DNA of 57,094 bases. It comes from Bacteroidota bacterium. Its GTDB lineage: Bacteria > Bacteroidota > Bacteroidia > Bacteroidales > ML635J-15. Location of the stretch: positions 1 to 57,094 of the forward strand of contig JAYEFQ010000026.1 in NCBI GenBank assembly GCA_034658655.1, written 5' to 3'. How positions within the stretch are numbered: the first letter of the stretch is position 1; each line of letters opens with the position of its first letter. This document shows positions 20,966-38,855 of this stretch, piece by piece. Below the pieces are notes generated by a model. The model was given only the letters and a program-made list of their open reading frames with translations. It searched no databases and was not told the DNA's origin. A program made the translations under genes and the position numbers.

Positions 20966-21058
20966 AGTGATTTTTGATATTAATTTCAACAAACCACAAA
21001 CTAAAAGCAACGTTTTGAAAATTAATTACGTTTATACAATATGTAATAGACACTAAAT

Positions 21059-21208
21059 AGAGTCTGTCCATAAAGTCCGATTTCTGCGTTATGTTCGTAT
21101 TTAAAACAGTCATCCGCCGGCTGGCGGACTCCTTGATTTTAAATACTTCACAAGCTCCCGATTAAATGCGGGACAGGCTTTGAACTCGAACTTTGTGAAT
21201 CAGACTCC
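21059..21208. mobile_element. MITE-like element with nested short palindromes
   Basis: Imperfect terminal IR gagtctgtccataaagt/actttgtgaatcagactc; inserts tccgccggctggcgga and tcccgattaaatgcggga. Confidence 0.5.
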
Positions 21209-23578: not shown

Positions 23579-23739
23579 TTTCCCCAACTTGACAGGTCCG
23601 CAAGAATAAATTAACTGCTATTGGCGAAACCTCGCATTGTTAATTTTAGGCGACCTGTCAGGTTGGGGATGATTAATTAACTGCTGTAGGCGAAACCTCG
23701 CATTGTTAATTTCAGGCGACATGTCAGGTTGGGTGTGAT
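23579..23739 (+). repeat. 135-bp structured repeat, right copy, plus an extra partial unit
   Basis: Direct copy of 20731-20865 with few substitutions, followed by a second aggcgacatgtcaggttggg. Confidence 0.85.
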
Positions 23740-23772
23740 ATATCAATTTGTAAATTATGTAGGATGTTGCAA

Positions 23773-23941
23773 CAGGGCGGAAACCGGCAGCCTTGCTTTG
23801 CGGTTTTTTTCTTGTGAACGGCTGATGCATAGTGACCGAAGGAAACTCATGCGAGCAGCCAATGAACAAAAAAAACTGCATAGCAAGCTATAGGTTGCAG
23901 ACCGTTCGCTGGGAATGCTTGTGGGCAGGGGCGAGTTGCCC
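23773..23941. other. GC-rich long imperfect hairpin of unknown function
   Basis: cttgctttgcggttttttt pairs with aaaaaaactgcatagcaag; ggctgatgcat pairs with atgcgagcagcc around a ccgaagg loop; a second small hairpin gggca..tgccc follows. Confidence 0.45.
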
Positions 23942-23960: not shown

Positions 23961-24878
23961 CTAATGTCCGTCTAAATCGTTGAGCATCCACAAGGCATGT
24001 TTCAAGCTTTTTAAAATGTACCACATGTATTCACCGACAGCTTTTGGGCTCCCTGGAAGGCAATAAACCAGTGATTGCGCACGTACCCCAGCCAAAGAAC
24101 GACTTAATGTGGCGTTTGGATTGCTTTCGGAGGTTTTCACTCGAATAAACTCCATAATTCCGGGAATTTCCATATCTAACATGGGGCGAACGACATCAGG
24201 AGTAATATCGCGATTGGATATTCCTGTACCACCACTTGTAATAATTATATCAGAACCTGAATCAAATATCAGTTGTTTCAGTTGATCTGCATCGTCAGAG
24301 ATAATTCGCGAATCTGCAGAAAAACGGAGTTTCTTATTTTCAAAAAAGTTCTCTAATTGCTCCACAATGAGTGGTCCGCTTTGATCTTTGTATTCCCCTG
24401 CGCTAGCCCTGTCGCTAAGTGTAATAATTTTGGCGCGAAAAATTTTCGGCACCCATTCAATCGAATCGCCTGCACGCACCACTCCGGCTTTTAAAACTCG
24501 ACAAAATACAGCAAAATGTGGAGTCACATAATGTCCGACCAATGTCACCGTTTTATGCATGGGTTTTCCTATAGAAGTGACTTCCAACACCGCATCGCCA
24601 ATGCGAAATATATCAAGCGGCTGCACCTGCAAATCATCCAAATAAGAACAAAAAATATTTTCAGCAAATGCACCGTATTCAAAATCGGGAGCTCCCGTAA
24701 AGCTTTTAAGTTCTTCAATTCGATTTGCACCCAAAAGCGATACCTGACGATACTTAGAGCCGAAATGCACATCATCAATAACCCCGCCCGGTTGCAATTG
24801 AATTTCAGACTGTTCAAATTTTCTACCACGGATTTTTGCTGAGGAAACAGCCAATACATTTAATTCTTGATTTTGCAT
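23961..24878 (-). CDS. mog: MOSC domain fused to MogA/MoaB molybdopterin adenylyltransferase
   Basis: N-terminal MOSC-like region (RQVSLL, GAFAEN); C-terminal TLSDR...D.SG, TSGGTG..RD.TP and LPGSPKA motifs; likely start ATG 24878 right after the moaC stop. Confidence 0.82.
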   Translation of the reverse strand: MQNQELNVLAVSSAKIRGRKFEQSEIQLQPGGVIDDVHFGSKYRQVSLLGANRIEELKSFTGAPDFEYGAFAENIFCSYLDDLQVQPLDIFRIGDAVLEVTSIGKPMHKTVTLVGHYVTPHFAVFCRVLKAGVVRAGDSIEWVPKIFRAKIITLSDRASAGEYKDQSGPLIVEQLENFFENKKLRFSADSRIISDDADQLKQLIFDSGSDIIITSGGTGISNRDITPDVVRPMLDMEIPGIMEFIRVKTSESNPNATLSRSLAGVRAQSLVYCLPGSPKAVGEYMWYILKSLKHALWMLNDLDGH

Positions 24879-24879
24879 A

Positions 24880-25344
24880 TTATTTAGAGGCTTTCTTAGT
24901 TTTTTTAGTTTTTTCAATAAGATGAATAGCACCAATTTCCATTTGCTTATCAATGCTTTTACACATATCGTAAATATTCAGTAACGCGACAGAAACACCG
25001 GTAAGAGCTTCCATTTCCACACCGGTTTTACCATAACTTTGTGCAGTACACCGTACCCAAATTCCCTCCGATTCAGGAATTACTTCCATTTCCACGCCAT
25101 GTACGGGAATATTATGTGCCAAAATAATAAGTTCAGACGTTTTTTTTGCGCCGTTGATTCCTGAGATACGACTCAATGCATGCACATCGCCTTTTTTTAA
25201 TTTATTTTCCGATATGACACTGATACAATCAGTATTTAACCGGATAAAACCTTCTGCTACGGCTTTTCGCAAAACATCCGCTTTATCGGTAACAGAAACC
25301 ATGTGCACTTCGCCTTTAGGATTGGTATGTGAAAATTTTGTCAT
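24880..25344 (-). CDS. moaC: Cyclic pyranopterin monophosphate synthase
   Basis: FSH...MV.V..K, KKGDV and KTGVEMEALTGV...YDMCKS motifs. Confidence 0.95.
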   Translation of the reverse strand: MTKFSHTNPKGEVHMVSVTDKADVLRKAVAEGFIRLNTDCISVISENKLKKGDVHALSRISGINGAKKTSELIILAHNIPVHGVEMEVIPESEGIWVRCTAQSYGKTGVEMEALTGVSVALLNIYDMCKSIDKQMEIGAIHLIEKTKKTKKASK

Positions 25345-25345
25345 C

Positions 25346-26146
25346 TTATCCTCCAATTTGATTAAAATGTCCTTTTATGCTTTTACTGCCTGCCTTAGGT
25401 TTTTGTTTCAAACTCATTTCCAATGCCTTTTCTATTCCCATTTCTCGGACATCAAATGCTAAATCGCTGAACAAACAAGGTTTTAATAATCCGTTTGCCG
25501 TTAAACGCAATCGATTGCAAATTTTACAATTTCCACCATCGCCGCCTTCAACATAAGTGAAAGTCCCATTTTTAAGATTCATTTCCTGAATAAAACGCAA
25601 TTCGAGTCCATTTTTCTGACAAAATTCTCGCAATTTAAGTTCATCCTCAGGCAGCGTAAGCTGATTTCGCACCATATTGATTTTTATGGGATTAAGTCCT
25701 GCATTTTGCGCTGCTTTAATTCCTCGTAACACTTGATTTACATCGCCACCACGGGTAATTTTCCGATAACGATCAGGATTTAAACTGTCCAAACTCACAT
25801 TGACACGTTGTAAGCCTGCGGATTTGAGTTTATGAGCAAATTTTTCGAGCAAAATGCCGTTTGTTGTCATACTTAAATCGGTAATTTCGGGAATCGCAGA
25901 CAACATCTCAACTAATTTGTCAATATCTTGGCGAACCAAGGGCTCACCACCGGTTAAACGAACTTTATTAATGCCTTTTTCTACAAGATAAACGGTAATA
26001 TCATGCATTTCCTCGTAAGACAAAATGTCTTCGTGCTTAAATGTCTGAATTCCTTCTGGTGGCATGCAATAAACACATCGCAAATTACATCTGTCGGTAA
26101 CAGAAATTCGCAAATAATTAATATTTCGATTATATTGATCTTGCAT
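25346..26146 (-). CDS. moaA: GTP 3',8-cyclase (radical SAM), shortened
   Basis: YLRISVTDRCNLRCVYC, TGGEP, CKICNRLRLT..G.LKPCL and C-terminal GG. Confidence 0.93.
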   Translation of the reverse strand: MQDQYNRNINYLRISVTDRCNLRCVYCMPPEGIQTFKHEDILSYEEMHDITVYLVEKGINKVRLTGGEPLVRQDIDKLVEMLSAIPEITDLSMTTNGILLEKFAHKLKSAGLQRVNVSLDSLNPDRYRKITRGGDVNQVLRGIKAAQNAGLNPIKINMVRNQLTLPEDELKLREFCQKNGLELRFIQEMNLKNGTFTYVEGGDGGNCKICNRLRLTANGLLKPCLFSDLAFDVREMGIEKALEMSLKQKPKAGSKSIKGHFNQIGG

Positions 26147-27317
26147 GCAAAAATTCTCCTTTTTCTATATTAATTTTTTCTGCCGGAACACATGCAAATC
26201 CGTCGATATCCGTTAATGCTGCAAGATGGCCAGAGCCATTATATTTCACAGGAAATAATTCGTTTTTAATAATTTTTACGGGAATCCAACTATCACGATC
26301 TGACTTTTTTGAGACAATAAGTTCCCCTATCGGCAAGATTAAATCTATATTCGAAATTTTAGCACCGCAAGCCGCATAAATCATAGGTTTTCCAAGTAAA
26401 ATAAACTGAATAAAACCAGAAATTGGATTTCCTGGCAATCCTAAAATTACAGAGTTTCCTTTTTTGGCCAACAATGTCGGTTTTCCAGGTTTTACGGCTA
26501 TCTTATGAAAAATAATTTCATAACCGGCATCCTGAATTAATTTCGGTACAAAATCAAAATCTCCCATGGAAACACCTCCGGTAAAAATGGATAAATCATA
26601 CCGACTGCAAGATTCCATAATCGTATTTAAGCTCCTCTTATCGTCGGCGACAATTCCCGAGTAATCAGCCTGAATGCCAATTGCCTGTAACTGCGCCTTA
26701 AGCTGCCATGCATTGGAATTTCGAATTTGCGAAGCACCCGGCGTTTTGTCGGGCTCTACCAATTCAGAGCCAGTGGTTACAATTTGTACTCGTGGCAATT
26801 TTGACACCAGAATGTTCACATATCCCTCAGCAGCCATCAAACCAATGTGCTGTGCTTGTATAACAGTACCTGCAGAAATCAAAATATCTTCCATTTTATA
26901 ATCCTCAGCCTGCATTGCAATATTGGATTTCCTACCGGGATGATTAATCACAATTTCCTTATCAGAAATTTGCTCAATATCTTCTTTCATTACCATCCAA
27001 TCGGCATTTTCAGGAACGGGAGCTCCTGTCATTATCGAAACGGTCTCCCCTGCTTTCATATCGAAATGTTTATTGGCACCGGCAGCAATTTGCCCGATCA
27101 CAGTAAGTTTTTGTCCAGTCTGAGGCGCTATACAGGCATACCCATCAACCGCTGCTTTATTAAAAGGCGGCATATCTCGTTTTGCACGTATATCCTGAGC
27201 CAAAACCCGCCCGAGTGATGAATCAAAACGGATTTTTTCAGTATCCATAGACTTCATTGCCGCAAGACAATGCGTATATGCTGCTTGTAAACTTATCATT
27301 TGATTGTTTTTTTCCAT
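26130..27317 (-). CDS. moeA: Molybdopterin molybdenum/tungsten transferase
   Basis: PPF.KAAVDGYA, IMTGAP, TGSEL, TGGVSMGDFD, KPGKP and LPGNP motifs. Confidence 0.95.
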   Translation of the reverse strand: MEKNNQMISLQAAYTHCLAAMKSMDTEKIRFDSSLGRVLAQDIRAKRDMPPFNKAAVDGYACIAPQTGQKLTVIGQIAAGANKHFDMKAGETVSIMTGAPVPENADWMVMKEDIEQISDKEIVINHPGRKSNIAMQAEDYKMEDILISAGTVIQAQHIGLMAAEGYVNILVSKLPRVQIVTTGSELVEPDKTPGASQIRNSNAWQLKAQLQAIGIQADYSGIVADDKRSLNTIMESCSRYDLSIFTGGVSMGDFDFVPKLIQDAGYEIIFHKIAVKPGKPTLLAKKGNSVILGLPGNPISGFIQFILLGKPMIYAACGAKISNIDLILPIGELIVSKKSDRDSWIPVKIIKNELFPVKYNGSGHLAALTDIDGFACVPAEKINIEKGEFLHARSI

Positions 27318-27850
27318 TCATTATTCTTCCAGCTTAACATTTCTGGAAAGCCATTTCTTTCCTCGTCTGAGCGCAAAACCGTATCGGCTAAATGCATAAA
27401 TTGTTGAGCTGAATCCTTAATGGGCTTTTCAGAATTAACAATCATGACATAGTATTTCGGGTGGATGAATTTTCGCAAAATATTTGATTCCAAAATCACG
27501 GGTTGTCCAGTTTCGCAAATTGTTTGCAAGTGAGTTAGAAATTGTTTCTCACCGGTTGTATGTGCCGCAAGAAACCATCCCTGATTGGCACCGGAACTTA
27601 GAAAGCGACCAGAATCTTTATTCACTGCTTTTCGCTCACGGATTGCAAAGAAATCTTTGTCTTTATAATCGGGATAATGCCTTTGAAAATCGCCTTCATC
27701 ATCGTACAAGACCGCTTTTACTGCAATAATCGGCAAATCAGCAAAATGCTCAATGATTTTACGAATTAAAGTGGTTTTTCCGCTGTTTTTGGAACTTCCA
27801 CCTATCATCATCAGGTTAGGAAAATATGGAATTGTTTGTTTCATCTTCAT
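27296..27850 (-). CDS. MobB-like P-loop protein
   Basis: IGGSSKNSGKTT Walker A, KDS.RFL..GA and ILESN; located in the Moco operon. Confidence 0.6.
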   Translation of the reverse strand: MKMKQTIPYFPNLMMIGGSSKNSGKTTLIRKIIEHFADLPIIAVKAVLYDDEGDFQRHYPDYKDKDFFAIRERKAVNKDSGRFLSSGANQGWFLAAHTTGEKQFLTHLQTICETGQPVILESNILRKFIHPKYYVMIVNSEKPIKDSAQQFMHLADTVLRSDEERNGFPEMLSWKNNEWKKTIK

Positions 27851-27874
27851 GTTATTTTAAAACTATACAATATA

Positions 27875-27882
27875 CAAAGTTA
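27875..27882 (-). promoter_or_regulatory. Bacteroidota -7 promoter box for the Moco biosynthesis genes
   Basis: TAACTTTG on the minus strand, 25 nt upstream of the MobB-like start. Confidence 0.55.
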
Positions 27883-27920
27883 ATCAATTCCTGTTCATGA
27901 ATGAAATTTAGGAAATGGAT

Positions 27921-28032
27921 AATACCGATTTAAACATCAAAATGCCGATATAATTCATTTTATTTCTTGCATCTGCCATGTGATGGATTCTACATCGGCA
28001 TAATACCTGCAGTTTTAATTAATAAATGGCTA
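27921..28032 (-). mobile_element. Dispersed MITE-like repeat, divergent copy
   Basis: Reverse complement reads aactgcaggtattatgccgatgtagaatc...atatcggcattttga...aatcggtatt, matching both ends of copy A. Confidence 0.55.
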
Positions 28033-28174
28033 AGTACATGTTAGAATGTAACTTGGTAAAAATTTTGAACGAAGTAAAAAAATTAAGCAACTTGCTAGCA
28101 GTTCGGTATAAATCCTCTTTTCTAGTTAATATATATAATAAATATCGCATAAATTTAGAGTTTTAAATTACTGT

Positions 28175-28435
28175 TTTTTATTTCGTATAAACTCTATATA
28201 ACAGTTTAAATAAGATGATAGCCGTTACTAACGGTTAGTAACGAATAAATCAATTAATTTTAAGTTACTTTTAACTACATAATATCTAAATATCTGAATT
28301 AGAGTGATTTATACTTGATTAATATGCTATAATTATCATTTAATATAACTATCATTCAAATAACTTTTAATTTTCGTATAAATAACACACACACTACCAA
28401 CACAAGGGATAGCCGCTACTAACGGTTATAAACGA
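28175..28435. repeat. Bipartite motif repeated with 191-bp period in an AT-rich gap
   Basis: tttcgtataaa-N25-gatagccgYtactaacggtta at 28181 and 28372. Confidence 0.55.
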
Positions 28436-28621
28436 CTATGCGTACAAGTATCAACATCTATTCACATACTTTAAACAATTTTCTCACAATCTTAAAACGC
28501 AACTTGCTAAACCTTCATTTAAATCTAAAAGTGCATCGTAATTATTTTAAAAATATTTTTAATCCTTTGTTTCATACCAAGTTCAGAACAACTGAGCTTA
28601 AAAATGTAAAAGCTTGGTTTT

Positions 28622-28725
28622 TACCGATTGTCATTCAAAACTACCGATATGCTACACTTTGCTTCGCCTATCGGTGTTGAATCTACATTGGCATTATACC
28701 GGAATTTTTAATTTTTAAGTGGTAT
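28622..28725 (-). mobile_element. Dispersed ~105-bp MITE-like repeat, copy B
   Basis: Near-identical inverted copy of 14995-15099; overlaps the last codons and stop of the ABC ATPase gene. Confidence 0.7.
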
Positions 28726-29749
28726 CACATGCTGTCATGCTATAATCTGAAATTTGTATCTGCACGTTTTGTCCTACTGAGAAATTTAAAGCTGTTTTTT
28801 TCAAGGCATACAGGCGAATTGTTTTTAACTGGACAACCAGAATTTCTCCACTTTGATCATTAAAAAGATCAAACACAATTCCGTGAGGCTTCACTTCCGT
28901 TGCCGAAACATTAACGTTCTCTGGAGCAATGACAATCCGCAGTTTGTCTTTGTTTTGCAAGTCCTCAGGGACAGACAAGTAAATATCATCTGACAATTTA
29001 ACTTCCGCTTGATGTGCGGCATTTTTAATTTCAAAATAATTTTTCACTCCGGTAAATGCAGCAATAAACGCATTAGCAGGATGATTAAAAACGGCATGAG
29101 TTTCTCCTGATTGTATCAATTTTCCCTGATGCAAAACGCCGAGTTTATTAGCCAAAGCCAAAGCAAGCTGATAATCATGCGTGACATGGATAAAAGTCTG
29201 CCCTTCGCGATTAAGTTTTCTCAACAAACTTTGCAATTGAAATTTATAATGCTGATCAAGCGAACGCATAGGCTCGTCAAGCAGAATAATATCAGGTTTC
29301 ATGGCAAGGGTTCGAGCCAAAACCACACGCTGAATTTCTCCACCTGAAAGGCTGTCTGAATATCTCGACAGTAAATTATCAACACCACAGGTTTTTGCAA
29401 GCTTTTGAACTTCCTCTTGCCGTTCTGATTTGCTCAAATGATTTAATGGATATGCAATGTTTTCACTCACTGTTTTATGCGGAAAAATAGAATCTCCCTG
29501 AAACATAATTCCAAATTTTCGTTCAGACATGGATTGTTTTGTAATATCCTGGTCACGAAACACGATTATACCGGAATCTGCTTTTTTTATCCCTGCAATC
29601 ACATCAAGCAACATGGATTTTCCTGCACCAGACTGTCCCAAAACAACATAATAGTCCCCAAGGGATATATCTATAGAAATATCCGAAAGCGAAAAATCGC
29701 CAAGCGTTTTATTAATTTGCCGTATGCTTAACATGCTTTGGTTTTGCAA
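28715..29749 (-). CDS. wtpC: Tungstate/molybdate ABC transporter ATP-binding subunit
   Basis: GQSGAGKS, LSGGE, LLDEP and HVTHD motifs; operon context. Confidence 0.8.
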   Translation of the reverse strand: MQNQSMLSIRQINKTLGDFSLSDISIDISLGDYYVVLGQSGAGKSMLLDVIAGIKKADSGIIVFRDQDITKQSMSERKFGIMFQGDSIFPHKTVSENIAYPLNHLSKSERQEEVQKLAKTCGVDNLLSRYSDSLSGGEIQRVVLARTLAMKPDIILLDEPMRSLDQHYKFQLQSLLRKLNREGQTFIHVTHDYQLALALANKLGVLHQGKLIQSGETHAVFNHPANAFIAAFTGVKNYFEIKNAAHQAEVKLSDDIYLSVPEDLQNKDKLRIVIAPENVNVSATEVKPHGIVFDLFNDQSGEILVVQLKTIRLYALKKTALNFSVGQNVQIQISDYSMTACDTT

Positions 29750-30512
29750 AATATCGTAATAAATAAAAAATTACCAGTGCGACAATAATGAACAGAACAG
29801 CAACAGGGCGCGTATATTTTAAGCCGTAACTTGTAAAGCGTTCAAAAATCATAACGGGCGTTGTCATAGGGTGATAAGCAATGATTACCACTGCGCCAAA
29901 CTCACTCATTCCACGAGCAAACATCATAATTAAACCGGACAACACCCCACGCCATGCAAGCGGCAATGAGACAGTAAAAAAACAACGAAACGGCGATGCT
30001 CCAAGATTTCTTGCTGTCAACTCAAGACGTTTCGGAACGGCTGCAAATGCATCCCGTGAGGCATTAATCAAAAAGGGAATACTGACAAAAGCCATTGCAA
30101 GTCCTATTCCGAGCGGACTACCCACAAAACTTAAACCTACCGATTCAGCCATTTGTCCAAGGACAGTATCCCGTGAAACAAAACCTAACAAAGCAATTCC
30201 GGCAGCAGTATGAGGAATCACAATCGGCAAATCAATCAATACCTGCAAAAACGTTTTACCAACAAATTTTTTTCTTGCCAATAACCATGAAAAAGGAATG
30301 GCTGCCACCGCAAAAAACAAGGTGGAAAAACCAGCACTCAACAAAGTAACTTTAATACTTGCCTGCACCTCCGGTTCTCTGACAGTTTCCATCATTGCGG
30401 GAAACTCCGTGTGTAAAAACATAGAGACTAAAGGGGCAACAATGAATAATAAAACCAGCGCACCCAATAAAGCAAATATTGCATTAAAACCTATGTTGCT
30501 GTATCTCGGCAT
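29712..30512 (-). CDS. wtpB: Tungstate/molybdate ABC transporter permease
   Basis: IDLPIVIPHTAAGIALL, ARNLGAS and ARGMSEFGAV..AYHP motifs. Confidence 0.85.
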   Translation of the reverse strand: MPRYSNIGFNAIFALLGALVLLFIVAPLVSMFLHTEFPAMMETVREPEVQASIKVTLLSAGFSTLFFAVAAIPFSWLLARKKFVGKTFLQVLIDLPIVIPHTAAGIALLGFVSRDTVLGQMAESVGLSFVGSPLGIGLAMAFVSIPFLINASRDAFAAVPKRLELTARNLGASPFRCFFTVSLPLAWRGVLSGLIMMFARGMSEFGAVVIIAYHPMTTPVMIFERFTSYGLKYTRPVAVLFIIVALVIFYLLRYFAKPKHVKHTAN

Positions 30513-31567
30513 TATTTGTCAGTCAAATTTCTATATTCAATTTTAGACATTGATTTAACGGCTCTGTCTGAAAAAAAATCAGAAGGAACAAATAAGCGAA
30601 ATTTACCGCCGTTTACATCTCCCCTGTCGTTAATCATCACTTCAGACTGATCATTTCTGTTCATGATTTCAGAGAATGAGAAAACCACACGGTATCCGTC
30701 CACTGAAGCAATAATGAAAATTCCGTGCTTCAGCGCCTCTGCATTAAACGTATAATCTGTTGCAATAACATCTTTTAGCCATTTCCCTTCAAAATCAGTG
30801 ATCCCGTGAATTCCACGACCTCTACCGTAAAAGATATTCTTAACGCGCTGGGTTGTAATGTCTTCATCAAATGTTTTGATTTCACGGACAAATTCTCCTG
30901 CATTATACAATTCAAATGATTCTGCAAACAAGGGCTCTGTCTCGGGAATTTCAGGAAATTCACCGGTGCATGAATGAACGCTGAGTTTTATCGGATTTTC
31001 AATCATGCGATTAGTAAATAAATCCAAGGCAGGGATTAGCTGAGTTTTCTGAGGCAAAGACCATTGATCTTTTGTTTTCGATGGGACAATCGGATTTACT
31101 GCATTTGCAATGATAATCTGATGCTGATTGGCCGCATAATAGATTTCCCCCCATGAAAAGACAACAAATTCGCCTTTATCATTCTCAACAATCACATACA
31201 AATCAATTATCGGCGAATAATCCGCTTCATTGGCTTTCTCCACTTTAATTTCATTTAGAATGTCATACAATGACACTCCGTGAAATTCATAAGCGCCCAC
31301 AAATTCGCCTCCTTGCTCAGAAAGCCGAGTGTCTTTAAACAAGACCGAACGCTGCGGAAAATCTGACAAATCCAAATTCATTTCACTTGCGACTTCACCA
31401 CTGATTTGAATTGAAAAATCGCTTTCAAGCTGTTTTTGTGGAGTATCATCATAAAAATCATTGGTTTCAATGCTATCATTATTCACATTTACTATTTCCT
31501 CATTTCCCTGAGGTGATTGACACGCAAAAACTACAGCTACAAGCAGTACTAATGCAATTTTTTTCAT
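30512..31567 (-). CDS. Uncharacterised lipoprotein with two sulfite-oxidase/molybdopterin-binding-like domains
   Basis: Lipobox VFAC; two related halves (GVSLYDIL..VVFSWGEI and GKWLKDVI..DGYRVVFSFSEI..FRLFVPSD..RAVK). Confidence 0.55.
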   Translation of the reverse strand: MKKIALVLLVAVVFACQSPQGNEEIVNVNNDSIETNDFYDDTPQKQLESDFSIQISGEVASEMNLDLSDFPQRSVLFKDTRLSEQGGEFVGAYEFHGVSLYDILNEIKVEKANEADYSPIIDLYVIVENDKGEFVVFSWGEIYYAANQHQIIIANAVNPIVPSKTKDQWSLPQKTQLIPALDLFTNRMIENPIKLSVHSCTGEFPEIPETEPLFAESFELYNAGEFVREIKTFDEDITTQRVKNIFYGRGRGIHGITDFEGKWLKDVIATDYTFNAEALKHGIFIIASVDGYRVVFSFSEIMNRNDQSEVMINDRGDVNGGKFRLFVPSDFFSDRAVKSMSKIEYRNLTDK

Positions 31568-31575
31568 AATAGTAA

Positions 31576-32511
31576 CTATTTCAAATTCAGTTGTTTTAAG
31601 ATTTTCTCATCTTGATAAATTGGTTCCTGTCCGAGATTTTTCAAGATTTTCATTCCCTTTTCAGGATGCAGTAAAAATGCCAAAAAATCTTCAGCAAGCG
31701 AAAGATTTTCAGCATTATTTGGAATCGTCAGCGAATAAACCATTGCTTCAGCAATCATTTCCACAGAATCTCCGGGTTGATTTCCATGAATATAAGTGGT
31801 AGAATTTGCATACCACTCATTCAATTCTGGCTTTGCAAGATTTACGGAATCAGAAAGAGTTATAAAATTCAAATCGTGCTGAACAGCAACCGATTTATAA
31901 ATAAAAATGTAGTCTATTGCATGTGCTTCAAGCAATCCTAACAAATCGGTTTCTTTCGGACGCACGTATGCTTTATCTTTTTTGAGCAAATCAACAATCT
32001 GCGGGGTTCCACTACGAATTGCTTCCAATTGTAAAAGTAAAACTGTCCGATAACCACAAGGATCTGCATGCGGGTTTGATCGACCGTAAATAATATAATT
32101 TTCAAACAATATTTCCGTCCAATTATTTGCATTAATCTTATCGCTTTCGCGGGATTTATCAGTAAAGGCAATTACCATTTCATTTCTTGCAAAGGGCAAA
32201 TTCCATGCGGCATAATCGGGAATAAGAAACTTATCAATCACACGAATATCGGCAGAAGCCATGATATCGCAATTTCGATTTAATTCCGTAATTTTTCTAG
32301 CACAATCCACCGATCCGGAAGCCTCAGTTTTTATGCTAACCTCCGGGTTTTCCACAAGATAAGCTGCCGTAATTTCCTGAAAAGGAACAGATAAACTCCC
32401 TGCATGAAAAATTACAATCTGATTCTCCTCCTTGTTAGGATTGCATGAATTACATATTATCAAAAGAAAGACAACAAGTCCGAGACTTAAAAAAATAGAT
32501 TTTTTCTTCAT
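31576..32511 (-). CDS. wtpA: Tungstate/molybdate-binding lipoprotein, WtpA type
   Basis: HAGSL, SGS, ASAD, DPCGYR, RPKETDL and YKSVA.QH motifs typical of WtpA. Confidence 0.85.
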   Translation of the reverse strand: MKKKSIFLSLGLVVFLLIICNSCNPNKEENQIVIFHAGSLSVPFQEITAAYLVENPEVSIKTEASGSVDCARKITELNRNCDIMASADIRVIDKFLIPDYAAWNLPFARNEMVIAFTDKSRESDKINANNWTEILFENYIIYGRSNPHADPCGYRTVLLLQLEAIRSGTPQIVDLLKKDKAYVRPKETDLLGLLEAHAIDYIFIYKSVAVQHDLNFITLSDSVNLAKPELNEWYANSTTYIHGNQPGDSVEMIAEAMVYSLTIPNNAENLSLAEDFLAFLLHPEKGMKILKNLGQEPIYQDEKILKQLNLK

Positions 32512-35234
32512 TTTAACAATTCGATTTTTACTGCTGTTAATTTAAAAGGTGCGATTTTAGAATACGGATCTAAATCAGATCGTGTTAGTCGATTTACTCG
32601 TGCCTCTGCAAAATGCCATGGCATAAACAACTCTCCGACAGCCACTTCATCTGTCAACCTTGCAAAGGTTTCCAATTCTCCCCTACTGTTTGACAATCGT
32701 ACTTTATCGTGATTTTTGATTCCAAGCCGATCGGCTTCCACAAAATTGATAAGCACATAGGATTCATCTGCAAAGGCATTCAACGAATCGTTTTTTCGCG
32801 ACATAGTAGCAGAATGAAATTGATACAAAATACGCCCTGAGTTCAGAATAAAAGGATGTTTGTCATCGGGTTGTTCGCTGCTTTCGACATGCTCAACGGG
32901 AAAAAGTTTCGCCAACCCATTTGGCGTATTAAATTTATCGAGAAATAATGTGCTTGTTCCCTGGTGATTTTCATCTGGACAAGGCCATTGAATTCCCTGT
33001 CTTTCAATACGATCATAAGAAATTCCGCGCATGATGGGAGTTGCCAGAGCAATCTCTTCAAAAATTTCGTTTGCAGATTGATAGTTTCCAATCGGTTTCC
33101 CCATCGCCTTTGCGATGTCGAGAATTATTTCCCAATCGCTACGAGCTTCTCCGGGCGCATCAACTGCTTTACGCACCCTTAATACACGACGATCTGAATT
33201 CACAAAGGTTCCGTCTTTTTCAGCAAAGGAGGCAGCGGGCAAAATCACATCTGCAAATTCGGTTGTTTCGGTATGGAAAATATCCTGAACCACCATAAAG
33301 TCAAGTTTTTCAATGGCTTTTTGGGTGTGATTCAAATCAGGATCGGTAACCATAGGATTTTCGCCCATAATAAATAAGCCTTTAATATCACCATGATAAG
33401 CAGCATGCATAATTTCAACCGTTGACAGTCCCTTTTCACCCGAGAGCAACTCATAATCGGTATTCCATAATTTAGCAATGCGCTTTCGATTTTCATCATC
33501 AGCTATTGGAATGTATCCAGGATACACCAAGGGAGATACGCCCACATCAGTTGCTCCCTGCACATTATTTTGTCCGCGCGGCGGATCAATTCCACATCGC
33601 TCTCGCCCAATTTGTCCGGAAATAAGCATCATATTAATCAATGAAAAGACATTGTTTGTTCCAGAAGTTTGCTGGCTCATTCCCATTCCCGTAGCAATCA
33701 TTGCGGTATCTGCTCCGGCGTAAATTCGAGCAGCCTGAGTAATTTTATCCGCAGGTACATTAGTAATTTTTTCTGTGTATTCGGGCGTATATTTTTCGAC
33801 GAGTTGTTTGAGTTCCTCAAATGCATTCATTCCTCCATCAACACGATTCTCGATAAATTTTCTATCAATCATGTCATCCTTAATGATTTGCCGAATGATT
33901 CCATTCAAAAGTGCAACATCTGTACCGATACGTTGTTGCAGCCAAAGGGTAGCATATTTCACCAAGGGAGTCCATTTCGGATCGCAAACAATAATTTTCT
34001 GTCCTTTTCTTGCCCCAGACTTCACATATGTTGCTGTGATAGGATGCGTTTCAATAATATTATTTCCCGTAACAAACAGACAATCGGTTGTTTCAAAATC
34101 CTCAATGGAATTGCTTCCGGCACCGTCACCAATAGATTTCAGCATGGCTGTTACGGTTGATGCATGACACAATCGAGTACAATAATCTAAATTATTATTC
34201 CCGAATGCCATACGAACAAATTTCTGGAAAATATAATTATCCTCATTGGTGCATTTTGCAGATGCGTATCCTGCCAAAGCTTTATTTCCATGTTTTTCAA
34301 TTATCCCGTTAAATTTTTCGGCAATAAGTGAAATTGCTTCATCCCATGTGGCTTTTCTAAACTCTCCATTTTCCTTAATTAATGGATGAGTTAATCGCTT
34401 TTTACTGCTAACAAAATCGTAACCAAAACGTCCTTTGATACAAAGTCGCCCATCGTTAGGCAACACGCCTTCAACGCCATCCGAACGCAAAATTTTATTT
34501 CCCTTTACGGATAATTCAATTTGACAACCGACCCCGCAATAAGGACAAGTGGTTTTGACCTTTTTTTCGAGTGTATCTAATTTTATTTCATCACGATGCG
34601 GTTTTTCAATCAGCGCTCCGGTAGGACACATTTGCACACATTCTCCACAGCCATCGCATTCCGATTCGTTCCACACTCCGTTTCCGGCAACGATATAGGA
34701 TGTCAAACCTCTTTCGGCATAAGACAAAACATTTTTCCCCTGCACTTCATCACAGGCTTTTATGCAACGGAAACATTTTATACATTTTGATGCATCGTAA
34801 GTTAAAACGGGCGACGAATCGTCAATTTTAGTCGGAATCATAGAGTGAATATCCGGAATTGATCGTTTTGCTTCCGTTTCGATATTATATTGTGCTGCCA
34901 ATTCCATGACCTCATCCCGATAGGAACCGTCATTTTCAGGATTGTATTCAGACAATAAATACTCTAAGGTGTGTTTTCGTGCTGCCTCAGATTCTTCATC
35001 AAAGGCAGTTACTTTCATGCCATCGCTTACGGAAACGGTACATGACATAACGAGCCCTTTTTGTCCTTCTATTTTCACAACACAAAGGCGACATGCACCG
35101 GTTGGAGAAAGTTTTTTATGATAACATAAATGCGGGATTTTTATATTGTTATCAAGTGCAACCTGCAATAGATTTTCACCTTCCTCAGTTTGAATTGTTT
35201 TATTATCAATCTGTATTTGAATTTGCTTTGCCAT
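32508..35234 (-). CDS. fdhA: Formate dehydrogenase alpha subunit (Cys form, cytoplasmic, N-terminal Fe-S extension)
   Basis: 2Fe-2S motif (CYH..GACRLC..C), two 4Fe-4S motifs, CPYCGVGC..C, active-site CTRLCHA and RGQNNVQG; no Tat signal. Confidence 0.92.
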   Translation of the reverse strand: MAKQIQIQIDNKTIQTEEGENLLQVALDNNIKIPHLCYHKKLSPTGACRLCVVKIEGQKGLVMSCTVSVSDGMKVTAFDEESEAARKHTLEYLLSEYNPENDGSYRDEVMELAAQYNIETEAKRSIPDIHSMIPTKIDDSSPVLTYDASKCIKCFRCIKACDEVQGKNVLSYAERGLTSYIVAGNGVWNESECDGCGECVQMCPTGALIEKPHRDEIKLDTLEKKVKTTCPYCGVGCQIELSVKGNKILRSDGVEGVLPNDGRLCIKGRFGYDFVSSKKRLTHPLIKENGEFRKATWDEAISLIAEKFNGIIEKHGNKALAGYASAKCTNEDNYIFQKFVRMAFGNNNLDYCTRLCHASTVTAMLKSIGDGAGSNSIEDFETTDCLFVTGNNIIETHPITATYVKSGARKGQKIIVCDPKWTPLVKYATLWLQQRIGTDVALLNGIIRQIIKDDMIDRKFIENRVDGGMNAFEELKQLVEKYTPEYTEKITNVPADKITQAARIYAGADTAMIATGMGMSQQTSGTNNVFSLINMMLISGQIGRERCGIDPPRGQNNVQGATDVGVSPLVYPGYIPIADDENRKRIAKLWNTDYELLSGEKGLSTVEIMHAAYHGDIKGLFIMGENPMVTDPDLNHTQKAIEKLDFMVVQDIFHTETTEFADVILPAASFAEKDGTFVNSDRRVLRVRKAVDAPGEARSDWEIILDIAKAMGKPIGNYQSANEIFEEIALATPIMRGISYDRIERQGIQWPCPDENHQGTSTLFLDKFNTPNGLAKLFPVEHVESSEQPDDKHPFILNSGRILYQFHSATMSRKNDSLNAFADESYVLINFVEADRLGIKNHDKVRLSNSRGELETFARLTDEVAVGELFMPWHFAEARVNRLTRSDLDPYSKIAPFKLTAVKIELLK

Positions 35235-35240
35235 GATAAA

Positions 35241-36485
35241 TTAGATTTTGTCCCTAAGGTGTTGATTAAAACTGGAAATCGGAATAATCGGAGATGCCCC
35301 GAGCGGGCAAAGTGAGTTTGCCGCAATGTATTCTGCTTCGAATTGCATTTTATCTAAAATGATTTCTTGATTAACAGCTTGCGTTGTTTTCAACTCTTGT
35401 GCCATTAAAGCAAGTTGAGCGGTGCCCACCCGACACGGGATACATTTCCCGCAGGATTCATGTTTAAAAAACTCCATAATATCCGCCATGAATTCCAAAG
35501 GATCTCGAGTTTCATTGAGCACCATAATTGCGCCACTGCCAAACACACCTCCGATTTTTTTTATGCTGTCGTAACATAACGGAATATCAAGATGTTCGTC
35601 AGAGAGGAAAGATCCGGCTGCCCCCCCAACTAATATTGCTTTCACTGGTACATTATCTTTCATGCCACCGGCAATTTCAATTAATTCGCGCAAGCTGACA
35701 CCCATTTCGGTTTCATAATTTCCTGCGTTATTTACATCTCCACTTATGCTAAAAATCTTTGTTCCGGGAGAATCTTTTGTTCCATATTTTCGATATGCAT
35801 CCGCGCCATTTTCGACAATAAACGGCATATGTGAAAAGGTTTCCACATTATGAACAAGGGTTGGTTTTTGCCATAATCCATGCTGAGCTGGAAAGGGAGG
35901 TTTTATTCTTGGATATCCCCGTTTTCCTTCAAGGGATTCAATCAATGTCAACTCTTCACCGCAAAGGTAAGAACCGGCACCCAATCGGATTTCCAAATCG
36001 AGTTTAAACTCATCATCGGCATCAAACACTTTGCCTAGCCAACCTTCAGCATAATAATTATCCAAAGCACGCTGGATTTTTCGGATAGAGTCGGTATATT
36101 CACCACGAATATAAATAAAACCTTTTGTTGCACCAATTGCCCATGCAGCAACCAATATGCCCTCAATAAGTAGATGAGGATCGTTTTCCATAATCGCCCT
36201 ATCTTTAAAAGTTCCGGGTTCTCCTTCATCTGCATTGCAAATAATATATTTTTGTCCGCAATAGCGACACAAACTTTCATCTGTAAACTTGCCTTTTAAT
36301 CCTGCTGAAAAACCAGCACCTCCACGTCCACGCAATCCACTGTCATTAATCGCTTTTAATACATCAAGCGGTTCCATTTTCAGTGCTTTTTGAAACGCAT
36401 TTAATCCTCCGACACGTTTATATTCCGCAAAACTTTCAGGGGCAATTTTTCCTGCATTTTTTAATGCTATTTTTGTTTCAATCAT
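35241..36485 (-). CDS. NuoF-like FMN/NAD(H)-binding beta subunit of the FDH complex
   Basis: GLRGRGGAGF, NADEGEPGTFKDR, CGEE and ESCGKCIPCR..LC motifs. Confidence 0.9.
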   Translation of the reverse strand: MIETKIALKNAGKIAPESFAEYKRVGGLNAFQKALKMEPLDVLKAINDSGLRGRGGAGFSAGLKGKFTDESLCRYCGQKYIICNADEGEPGTFKDRAIMENDPHLLIEGILVAAWAIGATKGFIYIRGEYTDSIRKIQRALDNYYAEGWLGKVFDADDEFKLDLEIRLGAGSYLCGEELTLIESLEGKRGYPRIKPPFPAQHGLWQKPTLVHNVETFSHMPFIVENGADAYRKYGTKDSPGTKIFSISGDVNNAGNYETEMGVSLRELIEIAGGMKDNVPVKAILVGGAAGSFLSDEHLDIPLCYDSIKKIGGVFGSGAIMVLNETRDPLEFMADIMEFFKHESCGKCIPCRVGTAQLALMAQELKTTQAVNQEIILDKMQFEAEYIAANSLCPLGASPIIPISSFNQHLRDKI

Positions 36486-36951
36486 GATTTTTAGATTTTT
36501 TTTGCCGGTATTTATTAAGTATCGAATCTATTTTCTCGGGTGTAAGATTCGTATGCAATTCGTCGTTCACCATCATCACGGGAGCTTTATCACAGTGCCC
36601 AAGACATTCAGAGACTTCAAGCGTAAACAACTTTTCTTCATCGGTACCTCCGATCGGAATATTTAATGCAGATTGGATGGAATTAAGGATATCCTGCCCT
36701 CCCAACATGCGACAAATTGGTGATTTACAAACTCGAATGACATATTTCCCTCGGGGCTGCGAGCTGAACATAGAATAATACTCCACAAGACCGTAAACTG
36801 CGGCTTTGGTAGTGTTAATATATTTAGCAATTGCCGCAATATCAGATTCAGAAATATAAGATTGGGCTGAATGGTTTTGAGTGTCATGCAAAATGTTCAG
36901 CAGCTGATCGGGCGAGGCTTCATATTTTGCAAGAATGTCATGTATCTGCAT
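36478..36951 (-). CDS. NuoE-like 2Fe-2S gamma subunit of the FDH complex
   Basis: VCKSPIC and ECLGHC.KAP motifs; likely start ATG 36951. Confidence 0.88.
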   Translation of the reverse strand: MQIHDILAKYEASPDQLLNILHDTQNHSAQSYISESDIAAIAKYINTTKAAVYGLVEYYSMFSSQPRGKYVIRVCKSPICRMLGGQDILNSIQSALNIPIGGTDEEKLFTLEVSECLGHCDKAPVMMVNDELHTNLTPEKIDSILNKYRQKKSKNHD

Positions 36952-37107
36952 ATTTTTGTGTTTTTGATAAAAATACAAAAAATTTCATATATTCAGATTA
37001 AATATTTGATTGATGGATTAATGATAAATGTCTAATTTGTGTGCTCAATTTAACTTAAGACTTTACTTTCTACCGCACATGCCAACACTTTTAAAAAACC
37101 TGAATAA

Positions 37108-37356
37108 AAAAGGAGTTTGACACGCAGGGAAAAGTACCGCAGAGATTCGCAAAGGAGCAAAGGAGCGCAAAGATGAACTGAAAAGAGCTTGACAGGTAAG
37201 AAAAAGTAACGCAAAGGAGAAAAAAAAAGTTAGACGGGGAGGGAAACTAAAAGGAGTTTGACACGCAGGGAAAAGTAACGCAGAGATTCGCAAAGGAGCA
37301 AAGTAGCGCAAAGATGAACTGAAAAGAGCTTGACAGGTAAGAAAAAGTAATGCAAA
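37108..37356. repeat. Tandem ~108-bp direct repeat with 141-bp period and internal CGCAAAG-type sub-repeats
   Basis: 37108-37215 and 37249-37356 are nearly identical. Confidence 0.85.
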
Positions 37357-37435
37357 AGTTAGCTAAAGAAATATGCATTCTTACTCAGATCTTCGCTTTC
37401 CGGCACGAGCAAAAAAGGTCTGAGAATCATAAATT

Positions 37436-38131
37436 TCAAATTGGAAAATGATAATAATTCATGCTGTCTTTTCGTGCAAAACCGATGAGTCCGATGTTAT
37501 TCTGTTTGCAAATGTCAATTGCAGCATGGCTTACTGCTGATTTAGTAACAATCCACGGGACATTAATCATTGCAAGCGATTGCACAATTTGTTTGGTTAC
37601 CCGACACGTCAACAACACCATTTTATCATGTGCCGAAAATTCTTCTGTCAAAATCTTTCCGATTAATATTTCGAGCGCATTGTTTCTGGAAATATCTTCA
37701 GAAAACAAATGGATTTTCGAACTATCAGACAAGGCGACAGCGTGAATCGCCCCAGTTTTTTGAAATGCATCACTTTTTGTTTGAAATTTATGCATTAATT
37801 TAAGGCTTGTATTAGCAGAAAGTTCAAAATATTTTGTTCTGTTAAATCGGGACAGATTCAATCCTTCTGGTTTCGTTTCAACTTCAATTACATCACCATT
37901 TTGCCAAATTTTAGTGATTTGATTATGTTCAGCTATTATTTTATGAACAAACAAGTGTCCGATTACTAATGCTTTCACATCCTGACCAGAACAATACAGC
38001 GTATCAAAAAACTTACTATTTATATAGAGTTTAAGGACATACTCTTTTGCAACGACATCCTCAACTTTAATAGAATGATGATTTTCGAATCGAACTATTT
38101 TTCTTGTTTCTGTAATTTTCGAGGTCTTCAT
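37436..38131 (-). CDS. fdhD: Formate dehydrogenase accessory protein FdhD, divergent
   Basis: EDVVAKE, FQKTGAIHAVAL, EDISRNNA, KSAVS and LIGFAR motifs. Confidence 0.8.
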   Translation of the reverse strand: MKTSKITETRKIVRFENHHSIKVEDVVAKEYVLKLYINSKFFDTLYCSGQDVKALVIGHLFVHKIIAEHNQITKIWQNGDVIEVETKPEGLNLSRFNRTKYFELSANTSLKLMHKFQTKSDAFQKTGAIHAVALSDSSKIHLFSEDISRNNALEILIGKILTEEFSAHDKMVLLTCRVTKQIVQSLAMINVPWIVTKSAVSHAAIDICKQNNIGLIGFARKDSMNYYHFPI

Positions 38132-38675
38132 AATCGTTAATATTTAGGTAGGTATCAGGAGTTTTAGCTTTCAAGAGATTTCCGCTAGTATATTTGTCCG
38201 TCACACTTCGAATTGAATAGAAATCTGATTGGAATTTTGCTTCAATTTCAGGAATTAAATCGACATGATAAAATGCATGCAAGGTTTGAATATTTCCTAG
38301 GGCTTCAGGCATTACAACCGGCTTTTTAAGCTGCTTATGCAAGTAGCTAATTTCATCGGCAGCAATGTCGGGCAAGTCTCCAGCAACAACAAAAAGCCAT
38401 TCTGTTGAAACTGCTTTTAATGCTGCATGAATTCCTGCTAGCGGACCTTTTCTGGGGAAAATATCTGACACGGTTTTAATTCCATAAGTCTTAAAACTTT
38501 CTGATGAATTTGTCACAATCAAAATTTCATCCGTAAAAACCTTCAGCACATTGAGTTGCCTTTGAATAATCGTTTGTCCATCGATTTCAATAAATGATTT
38601 TATTTTTCCGCCAAAACGACGATTTTGCCCGCCGGCAAGTATTGCGATACTAAATTCTGGATAAAGCGATTTCAT
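38067..38675 (-). CDS. mobA: Molybdenum cofactor guanylyltransferase
   Basis: ILAGGQNRRFGG.IK, GPLAGI, AGDLP and NIN motifs. Confidence 0.88.
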   Translation of the reverse strand: MKSLYPEFSIAILAGGQNRRFGGKIKSFIEIDGQTIIQRQLNVLKVFTDEILIVTNSSESFKTYGIKTVSDIFPRKGPLAGIHAALKAVSTEWLFVVAGDLPDIAADEISYLHKQLKKPVVMPEALGNIQTLHAFYHVDLIPEIEAKFQSDFYSIRSVTDKYTSGNLLKAKTPDTYLNINDYEDLENYRNKKNSSIRKSSFY

Positions 38676-38760
38676 AATTGCAAGATATAAAAAAACAAAT
38701 ATGAATTATTAAGGTATTATCCTTATTTTAGTGGTTGGAAATGTAGTTGAATTGTAAGTT

Positions 38761-38855
38761 ATATCATTTTGAAATCGAAAATCCCGGTATAATGCCGATA
38801 GTGAATCAGCCATGTGGCTGATTCACTATCGGCATTATCATTAAATTCGTGGTAG
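38761..38855 (+). mobile_element. Variant of the dispersed MITE-like family with a perfect 24-bp hairpin
   Basis: Left end resembles copy A; ataatgccgatagtgaatcagcca-tg-tggctgattcactatcggcattat at 38789-38838. Confidence 0.55.

Follow-up and report, generated by a model that had tools for sequence, protein, structure and literature searches.

Layout of the cluster

The DNA analysed here (the window) is a stretch of 57,094 nt of contig JAYEFQ010000026.1, assembly GCA_034658655.1, from a Bacteroidota bacterium of the order Bacteroidales (ML635J-15), and our subject is the cluster of formate dehydrogenase (FDH), metal uptake and pterin-cofactor genes at positions 23961-38675. The genome (G000) is a draft of 162 contigs that is 98.7% complete. 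The cluster consists of 14 co-directional open reading frames (ORFs), all on the minus strand and all with intact reading frames. In the direction of transcription, the genes are mobA-fdhD-nuoE-nuoF-fdhA-wtpA-lipoprotein-wtpB-wtpC-P-loop-moeA-moaA-moaC-MOSC/mog. An original prediction had described 14 co-directional genes with repeats at both ends, and both the genes and the repeats were confirmed. Pfam and NCBIfam assign families to 12 of the 14 ORFs; a 351-aa lipoprotein and a 184-aa P-loop protein remain without a family.

Two gaps, of 458 bp (36979-37435) and 865 bp (27851-28714), divide the cluster into three blocks, which are probably three transcription units. The first encodes a MobA-like guanylyltransferase of 202 aa (38067-38675; PF12804, E 1.9e-31; NF001457, 127 bits, cut-off 164) and a short FdhD of 231 aa (37436-38131), and is followed by two copies of a 108-nt repeat, 97% alike, at 37108-37356. 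The second block begins with an FdsG-like, NuoE-like [2Fe-2S] subunit (36478-36978; PF01257, E 3.6e-45), a NuoF-like FMN/NADH subunit of 414 aa that comprises the core only (35241-36485; PF01512, PF10589 and SLBB) and the catalytic subunit FdhA of 908 aa (32508-35234; TIGR01591, 801 bits, cut-off 666). It continues with a WtpA-type tungstate/molybdate binding lipoprotein (31576-32511; TIGR03730, 284 bits, cut-off 243), the 351-aa lipoprotein (30512-31567), a WtpB-like ABC permease (29712-30512; NF040839, 269 bits, cut-off 340; PF00528) and a WtpC-like ABC ATPase (28715-29749; NF040840, 255 bits, cut-off 440; PF00005). Beyond the second gap, an AT-rich spacer with a GC content of 0.30 and dispersed repeats, the third block encodes the P-loop NTPase with its Walker A motif (27296-27850), the metal insertase MoeA (26130-27317; PF03453, PF00994 and PF03454), a short MoaA of 266 aa (25346-26146; TIGR02666, 281.5 bits, cut-off 284.05), MoaC (24880-25356; TIGR00581, 169 bits, cut-off 141.5) and a MOSC-Mog fusion (PF03473 and PF00994). 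The ORF of the fusion spans 23961-24953, and alignment with orthologs indicates the ATG at 24878 as the likely true start, which gives a likely gene of 23961-24878.

The 3' end of the cluster is followed by palindromic repeats resembling repetitive extragenic palindromes (23579-23779; 6-7 matches, with copies on the same contig only), and a palindromic dispersed repeat with a perfect 24-nt inverted repeat lies upstream of mobA (38758-38838; 29 matches on 22 contigs). No Rfam family was found in the window at the gathering thresholds, hence no molybdenum cofactor riboswitch was detected. Public sequencing runs with this DNA comprise four DNA runs from one brine-metagenome study and no RNA run. 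In comparison with genome G010 (and, for seven genes, also with G006), all 14 genes have ratios of non-synonymous to synonymous substitution (dN/dS) of 0.03-0.22 at dS 0.5-1.2. The cluster is under purifying selection and its function is maintained.

Formate dehydrogenase and oxyanion uptake

Among solved structures, FdhA is matched best by the tungsten FDH of Methylorubrum extorquens (7vw6/7e5z; residues 5-904, E 8e-201), followed by FdsA of Rhodobacter capsulatus (6tg9; E 1e-174) and Escherichia coli FdhH, both of which are molybdenum enzymes. In the alignment with 7vw6 the motifs CTRLCHAS and RGQNNVQGA, whose residues we take to be catalytic, are aligned and kept. As the Cys-His pair of CTRLCHAS is retained and the gene has no in-frame stop, FdhA is, judged by its sequence, a cysteine enzyme. 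Pfam finds NuoG's 2Fe-2S and 4Fe-4S domains at the N-terminus of FdhA, whose dN/dS is 0.045-0.051. The NuoE-like protein matched the NCBIfam models of NuoE and of the formate dehydrogenase gamma subunit, both below the cut-off. Matches of the NuoF-like protein in the PDB are limited to the core of NuoF, HydB, HoxF and FdsB. Since the additional domains that subunits of the bifurcating type (584-630 aa) have at the N- and C-terminus are missing, we infer a plain NAD(H)-linked FDH and not a bifurcating one. The Fe-S N-terminus, the Cys-His pair, the match to 7vw6/7e5z and the NuoE/F-like genes upstream agree with the earlier suggestion of a module for NAD-linked formate/CO2 interconversion.

FdhD scored 111 bits against TIGR00129 (cut-off 141) and 147 bits against PF02634 (cut-off 27), and its alignment with the solved FdhD structures 2pw9 and 4pde covers the C-terminal domain only. 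In E. coli FdhD, the functional inter-domain loop contains the cysteine pair Cys121/Cys124. Residues 48-175 of the FdhD of the window contain no cysteine, the E. coli loop itself not being directly aligned. All seven FdhD genes found beside this type of FDH encode proteins of 228-248 aa, and their alignment shows no conserved inter-domain cysteine pair.

Other FDH genes came to light among the relatives. In an evenly sampled set of 251 genomes of the order, with completeness of at least 90% and 176 genera (the order sample), eight FdhA paralogs of 39-45% identity carry a single in-frame TGA (e.g. G198:C3:4930-7608 and G058:C7:75766-78468) and probably represent selenocysteine versions of this NuoG-fused architecture. 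Two FDH operons stand in tandem in several Marinilabiliaceae-type loci. Elsewhere in the window's genome, an open frame of 888 aa whose N-terminus is of the 2Fe-2S type and whose molybdopterin-oxidoreductase domain is partial runs to a contig end (locus L008, G000:C23:100871-103519). Its full-length relatives (~1200 aa) occur in most genomes of the genus, with or without MoaC, and for this reason the protein is probably independent of the cofactor.

WtpA passed the TIGR03730 model and scored 321 bits, below the cut-off of 355, against NF003196. Its best solved relatives are the archaeal ModA/WtpA proteins AF_0094, MJ1186 and PF0080 (E 1e-55 to 1e-61). It keeps the Asp of DPCGYR and the Glu aligned with SME of AF_0094, presumably the metal ligands. 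ModA was not detected in the genome, and WtpA is the sole molybdenum/tungsten binding protein found there.

The 351-aa lipoprotein encoded between wtpA and wtpB has no Pfam or NCBIfam family at E <= 0.001 (a weak match to PF00174 has E 0.0022), and its unannotated family has 2088 relatives, for which every source name given is 'hypothetical protein'. Its AlphaFold2 (AF2) model (pLDDT 84.6) was matched by Foldseek to sulfite dehydrogenase SorA, YedY/MsrP and the pterin-binding PruR (2ca3, 1xdy and 7kom) with probability 1.00 and E 6e-6 to 4e-4, the target-normalised TM-score (TMt) against PruR being 0.56-0.58. By our reading, the model holds two domains of the sulfite-oxidase (SUOX) type. Since the protein is encoded within a transporter operon, it is more likely to be a binding protein than a molybdoenzyme. 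Homologs also adjoin wtpB or wtpC in three further lineages (L024, L032 and L118). A role as a substitute for WtpA was considered and rejected, as WtpA is encoded elsewhere in G015, G016 and G018. A first functional context is now available for some 2000 unannotated lipoproteins.

Cofactor pathway and the MOSC domain

The Mog domain scored 97 bits against TIGR00177 (cut-off 85). MoaA matched TIGR02666 in two stretches; about 50 residues that Staphylococcus aureus MoaA has between the barrel and the C-terminal cluster are missing, and CxxCx13C and the terminal GG are kept. L118 and most loci of the order have this form of 266-268 aa, and loci of families f155 and f167 have a full-length MoaA, so that the short form is not tied to the gap in the pathway described below.

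The P-loop protein aligned with MobB models in the Walker A stretch only (TIGR00176, 21 bits, cut-off 76; PF03205, E 0.013). A homolog search returned three close relatives only, and the Atlas gave clusters named 'hypothetical protein' only, one row being 13% MobB. Its AF2 model (pLDDT 91.9) had no Foldseek match at E <= 0.001. In VIA-align comparisons LpxK, HypB, Ffh, dethiobiotin synthetase and MobB tie at Z 8.3-10.2; MobB itself, at Z 8.3-8.7, is tied with or below LpxK, HypB and Ffh (Z 9-10). The confidently modelled fold is that of the SIMIBI class of NTPases (SRP/MinD/BioD type), and the protein may be a MobB analogue or a metallochaperone. The position of the gene, after the transporter and before moeA, recalls the MoeA1-MobB pair of M. 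extorquens in the accessible part of PMC13197769.

For the step between MoaC and Mog, in which MoaD/MoaE with MoeB insert sulfur, neither the cluster nor the genome has a recognisable gene. MoaE (PF02391) and ThiS/MoaD (PF02597) had no match in the genome, and when 20,771 ORFs were searched by phmmer --max with MoaE and MoaD seeds taken from two genomes of its order, no hit was better than E 1.7 and 0.15, respectively, the latter for the best of the faint MoaD-like candidates (C117:17287-17586). MoeB was not found either; the sole ThiF-family gene of the genome is TcdA-like and lies among tRNA-modification genes. Two ORFs were examined and rejected: an 82-aa ORF at 37063-37311, as a hidden MoaD or MoaE, is of low complexity and lies within the tandem repeat, and a 148-aa ORF between MOSC-Mog and moaC in L022, as a second MOSC protein, has no family and no MOSC alignment. 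Because no gene for MoaD, MoaE or MoeB is recognisable anywhere in this 98.7%-complete genome, the cluster as annotated is not self-contained by the canonical scheme, contrary to the original prediction. That prediction was right that the accessory proteins have non-canonical features; those seen here are the short MoaA, FdhD without a cysteine loop and, as described below, MOSC without its cysteine triad.

The gap recurs among relatives. Of 41 related genomes, 13 have MoaC and two have MoaE, and since all 13 hold an AOR-family gene, an FDH or a nar operon (the last in G025), genomes without MoaE do, by gene content, need the cofactor. In the order sample MoaC occurs in 115 genomes and MoaE in 17, all of them with MoaC; thus 98 of the 115 MoaC genomes lack MoaE, as do 35 of the 36 genomes with this type of FDH. 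The same gap is seen in single- or few-contig genomes, such as G125, G095 and G079. In other orders of the same class, MoaE is present in 23 of 24 MoaC genomes, and in other classes of the phylum in 38 of 74, where family f155 accounts for 30 of the 36 without it.

Family f155 belongs to another class and has genomes of 1.8-3.1 Mb with GC ~0.55; MoaC occurs in 33 and MoaE in three of its 38 sampled genomes. Its locus L116 (G363:C1:1454000-1471000) encodes a MoaC-MoaB fusion, MoeA, a MobB-MobA fusion, full-length MoaA and a stand-alone MOSC protein. In L021 (G025:C24:222500-242400) the genes of a respiratory nitrate reductase operon, for NarH-like and NarI-like proteins and two nitrate/nitrite transporters of the major facilitator superfamily, and a TauE gene lie directly upstream of a cofactor module of mobA, P-loop gene, moeA, short moaA, moaC and MOSC-Mog, and no MoaE was found in this 99%-complete genome.

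A candidate for the missing step is the MOSC domain (PF03473, 38.9 bits, cut-off 22.7), and no second MOSC match was found in the genome. This half of the fusion (P0001) has a match in 98 of the 251 genomes of the order, a sample that covers >100 family codes. It is present in 94 of the 98 MoaC genomes without MoaE, and of the four exceptions, two are genomes whose MoaC is only a fragment at a contig end; it is present in two of the 17 MoaE genomes, in one of them as a 26%-identical, 235-aa protein of another type. Fisher's test gives p 2e-13 for this near-complementarity, which is overstated since the sampled genomes are related. In other classes, the cofactor clusters of all three MoaE-less loci examined include a MOSC gene from this subfamily; in L116 and L119 it stands alone beside mobB-mobA/moaA or moeA, and L118 has it as a fusion to Mog. 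NF011069, the NCBIfam model of a MoaC/MOSC fusion, is matched by the domain too, in its MOSC half (E 7.8e-20). MOSC is therefore found fused to the enzymes both before and after the missing step.

A CHGxxC...C triad, which includes the cysteine of GKxCH, is present in seven of 10 MOSC orthologs and in the stand-alone forms of other classes. The three sequences of the genus have lost all three cysteines together with a deletion of four residues. The dN/dS of the MOSC part is 0.05 against G010 and 0.11 against G001, so that the cysteine-less MOSC part is, on these values, functional in some role.

A less probable suggestion is that the MOSC domain replaces molybdopterin synthase and carries out or mediates the insertion of sulfur into cyclic pyranopterin monophosphate, in which case the cluster would be self-contained by a non-canonical route. 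The distribution, the MOSC genes of the MoaE-less loci in other classes, the two fusion partners and the low dN/dS all point this way. A similar idea is in print: in the accessible part of PMC4751268, Dehalobacter genomes lack MoaD and MoaE and two MOSC proteins are proposed to fill in. According to the portion of PMC2700814 available to us, Geobacter metallireducens has an incomplete synthase with mosC next to moaA, and PMC5039349, as far as its text was accessible, reports MoaE to be missing in all 14 acetogens studied. Several facts count against the suggestion. Our literature searches found no biochemical test of it, and known MOSC proteins bind the finished cofactor and do not make it (PMC6147048, in the part available). 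The genus lacks the triad, including the canonical MOSC cysteine, so that a persulfide route through it cannot hold here. The relatedness of the sampled genomes inflates their independence in the two-by-two table, which may also reflect two alternative gene cassettes and not a one-for-one replacement; moreover, genome G239 holds MoaE and a MOSC domain together. In its widest form, which we regard as no less doubtful, the MOSC protein would act as molybdopterin synthase in most Bacteroidales, in three or more other families of the phylum (f155, f163 and f167) and in the published cases from Firmicutes and Geobacter. This genus would hold a cysteine-less working variant, which together with the cysteine-less FdhD and the SUOX-fold lipoprotein would amount to a different logistics of sulfur and metal. 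In such a variant, sulfur would have to arrive by another route.

A cluster without molybdopterin synthase, MOSC cysteines or FdhD cysteines might instead be a decaying or inactive remnant, and the failure to find MoaD, MoaE and MoeB and the loss of both sets of cysteines are what a remnant would lead one to expect. However, all 14 frames are intact, the dN/dS values given above hold for every gene and for the cysteine-less MOSC part itself, and three more species of the genus retain this gene set. We consider decay highly improbable.

Metal, origin and meaning of the cluster

Taken together, the cluster is very probably a three-block set typical of environmental Bacteroidales, combining a cytoplasmic NAD(H)-linked FDH with oxyanion uptake and cofactor maturation genes. 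Gene content, conservation, purifying selection and distribution are shown by the sequences; we infer the activity of the enzyme, its link to NAD, the operon structure and the metal. In the proposed scheme, WtpABC would import tungstate or molybdate, with the SUOX-fold lipoprotein as an added envelope component. MoaA and MoaC would produce cyclic pyranopterin monophosphate and, once sulfur has been inserted, the Mog domain and MoeA would insert the metal, possibly helped by the P-loop protein. MobA would add GMP, and the short FdhD would pass the cofactor to FdhA, a subunit with a Cys-ligated bis-pyranopterin-guanine-dinucleotide and a NuoG-like Fe-S wire that the NuoE- and NuoF-like subunits would connect to NAD+/NADH via FMN.

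Several points weigh against this reading. MobA, FdhD, MoeA, WtpB, WtpC and the NuoE/F-like proteins score below the curated NCBIfam cut-offs, and MoaA falls 2.5 bits short. The molybdopterin synthase step is unexplained, and two sulfur-handling features, the MOSC triad in this genus and the cysteine loop of FdhD, are missing. With 162 contigs, moaDE could lie in an assembly gap of this single genome. As regards the metal, WtpA-type proteins bind both tungstate and molybdate, and in G025, where WtpA was not found, a related cofactor module lies beside the nitrate reductase operon, so that the module is not specific for tungsten.

The last two points also favour an enzyme that depends on molybdenum, with WtpABC as a molybdate importer, as does the fact that R. 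capsulatus FdsA and E. coli FdhH, close relatives of FdhA, are molybdenum enzymes; in addition, there is no sequence rule by which the metal is decided. On the other side, the best solved match of FdhA is a tungsten enzyme, no ModA was found, and the genome has an AOR-family gene resembling GAPOR (626 aa; G000:C68:669-2549, L020), for which the archaeal glyceraldehyde-3-phosphate:ferredoxin oxidoreductase model scored best (348 bits, cut-off 1300). WtpA lies beside AOR genes in three relatives (G015, G018 and G020). The order wtpABC/P-loop/moeA resembles the moeA1-mobB-tupBCA cluster of M. extorquens, in which the MoeA1-MobB pair is needed for tungsten insertion (accessible part of PMC13197769). 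We regard dependence on molybdenum as a minority prospect, and tungsten use as plausible and favoured. The earlier phrase 'probably tungsten-dependent' thus stands as a reasonable lean, given WtpA as the only binding protein found, the lack of ModA and the GAPOR-like gene, whereas the metal assignment itself is a prediction.

Similar GAPOR-like genes occur in G006, G010, G015, G016, G020 and G037. In G020:C183 (L031, 11200-31100; 26894-28216) AOR, wtpA, wtpB, wtpC, moeA, short moaA, moaC, MOSC/Mog and an HD-domain gene stand in a row, which looks like a compact tungsten-AOR module, again without MoaD/MoaE. An HD-domain gene like that of G020 follows MOSC-Mog in L022, L023 and L032.

The origin of the cluster was approached through FdhA. 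A scan of one genome per species gave 511 confirmed relatives, of which the best 80 were inspected. By best segment, these 80 have identities of 60-93%, and nearly all bear Bacteroidales, Bacteroidota or Marinilabiliales titles, the exceptions being two Victivallales and about six Desulfobacterales or 'delta proteobacterium'. In a FastTree phylogeny of 72 full-length rows, the four sequences of the genus form one clade (support 100) inside an all-Bacteroidota clade of 22 rows (support 98), and the rows from outside Bacteroidota are nested among those of Bacteroidota. Most of the 80 loci have the nuoE-nuoF-fdhA core, a missing partner often coinciding with a contig end. Near fdhA, mobA occurs in about 30 of them and fdhD in seven, wtpA follows in nine, and the full arrangement of the window was found in the genus only. 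In the order sample this FDH type is present in 36 genomes and 30 genera, the orthologous lineage (at least 58% identity) being present in 18; MoaC accompanies it in 33 and WtpA in 27 of the 36. WtpA was matched in 83 of the 251 genomes (82 over the cut-off). With MoaC in 115 genomes, the claim that pterin-cofactor enzymes are uncommon in Bacteroidota does not hold in this order.

Repeat families at the ends of the cluster and inside it have 5 to ~90 matches each, on up to 67 contigs. Inside the cluster they lie at 37108-37356, where the 108-nt unit has 20 matches on nine contigs, and at 27960-28714; sections of the spacer have as many as 58 and 92 further matches in the genome, spread over a total of 67 contigs. 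Because dispersed families also lie inside the cluster, the repeats do not mark the borders of an island. Intergenic families at 21051-21200, 27960-28040, 28600-28714, 37108-37356 and 38758-38838, some of them palindromic, have 20 to ~90 matches in the genome, with short matches in other genomes of the genus, and may explain the fragmented assemblies of the genus.

The cluster might nevertheless be a genomic island acquired recently from outside Bacteroidota. It is patchy in the genus, with full-length FdhA in four of 13 genomes and a fragment in G008, it has repeats at its edges, and the solved relatives of its WtpA are archaeal. G010 shares the right flank and not the left; its similarity ends at 38712, and the two halves of its cluster lie on different contigs, with similarity ending in the 27851-28714 spacer. 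In G002, a complete genome, ~3.1 Mb separate the two flanks. Yet the nearest FdhA relatives are from Bacteroidales, with the Victivallales and Desulfobacterales rows nested among them, the edge repeats belong to dispersed families, and WtpA is frequent in the order. In nine other loci, from six families of the order, the moeA-moaA-moaC-MOSC/Mog block has an identity of 38-58% (56-92% within the genus), and G010 and, in part, G001 have the right flank in common with the window. The GC content of the cluster (0.36-0.42) is within the range of the window and like that of the flanks, no tRNA was found in the window, and the 16 flanking ORFs scanned, which encode housekeeping proteins or proteins of the type IX secretion system (T9SS), include no integrase or transposase family. 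A clean empty insertion site was not found, as the flanks are non-adjacent in all five cluster-less genomes of the genus that were searched; in four genomes other than G002 they lie on different contigs.

A recent foreign origin is thus very unlikely in our view, and the original description of the cluster as acquired finds no backing in the FdhA clade, the GC content or the flanks. That description had been set against inheritance and wide occurrence in the order; wide occurrence largely holds for the parts of the cluster, but the distribution is patchy within the genus. By sequence comparison, the cluster is made up of modules native to the order, and both gain and loss within Bacteroidales are possible. 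Two large T9SS cargo proteins flank it (21268-23565 and 41949-48173), one with DUF7619 and Por_Secre_tail domains and the other a SprB-repeat protein of 2074 aa.

The FDH itself is ordinary, being one more member of a lineage present in many Bacteroidales metagenome-assembled genomes. Genome papers since at least 2009 have noted organisms with working molybdo- or tungsto-enzymes and without a complete molybdopterin synthase. What is new here is that the gap is the rule across a whole order, set against canonical sister orders, that MOSC is almost perfectly complementary to MoaE, and that the genus offers a natural cysteine-less variant for comparison; a limited literature search for molybdopterin synthase in Bacteroidales found no paper, and the order-wide counts are new here. 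Completeness rules that demand MoaD/MoaE would count these genomes, wrongly, as non-producers of the cofactor.

Among known systems, MeFDH1 (FoDH1) of M. extorquens AM1 (7vw6/7e5z) is likewise of the Cys type and NAD-linked, with NuoG-like Fe-S domains. As far as the accessible part of PMC13197769 goes, M. extorquens likewise has MoeA and a small P-loop protein beside a tungstate transporter, together with MobA and FdhD. It differs in having canonical MoaD, MoaE and MoeB, none of which was found in this genome, a Tup transporter in place of Wtp, and a MobB, as which the P-loop protein here is not recognisable (same source). Furthermore, FdhD is short here and without the inter-domain cysteine loop, and M. 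extorquens is an aerobe, whereas relatives of this genome carry several [FeFe]-hydrogenase-like genes. With FdsABG of R. capsulatus and Cupriavidus necator (6tg9/6tga and 6vw7) the enzyme shares the three-subunit plan of an alpha subunit with NuoG-like domains, a NuoF-like beta subunit and a NuoE-like gamma subunit, and its NuoF-like subunit matches FdsB at E 1e-90 to 1e-94; however, the FdsABG enzymes contain molybdenum, and their beta subunit has 500-520 aa instead of 414.

Compared with the archaeal WtpABC and ModA-WtpA systems (AF_0094 and PF0080; 2onk and 3cg1), WtpA is here in a bacterial lipoprotein form that is common in the order, the operon includes the extra gene for the SUOX-fold lipoprotein, and WtpB and WtpC remain below the curated cut-offs. 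That lipoprotein differs from the SUOX-fold proteins YedY, SorA and PruR in having a lipoprotein signal and not a Tat signal, and its family lacks an invariant cysteine in an alignment of 30 sequences. Finally, Geobacter, Dehalobacter and the acetogens likewise combine cofactor-dependent enzymes with the lack of a complete molybdopterin synthase and a MOSC gene in the cofactor cluster (PMC2700814, PMC4751268 and PMC5039349, each in its accessible part). In contrast with the clusters of those organisms, MOSC is here fused to Mog, MoaA is short, and the MOSC domain of the genus has lost its cysteines.

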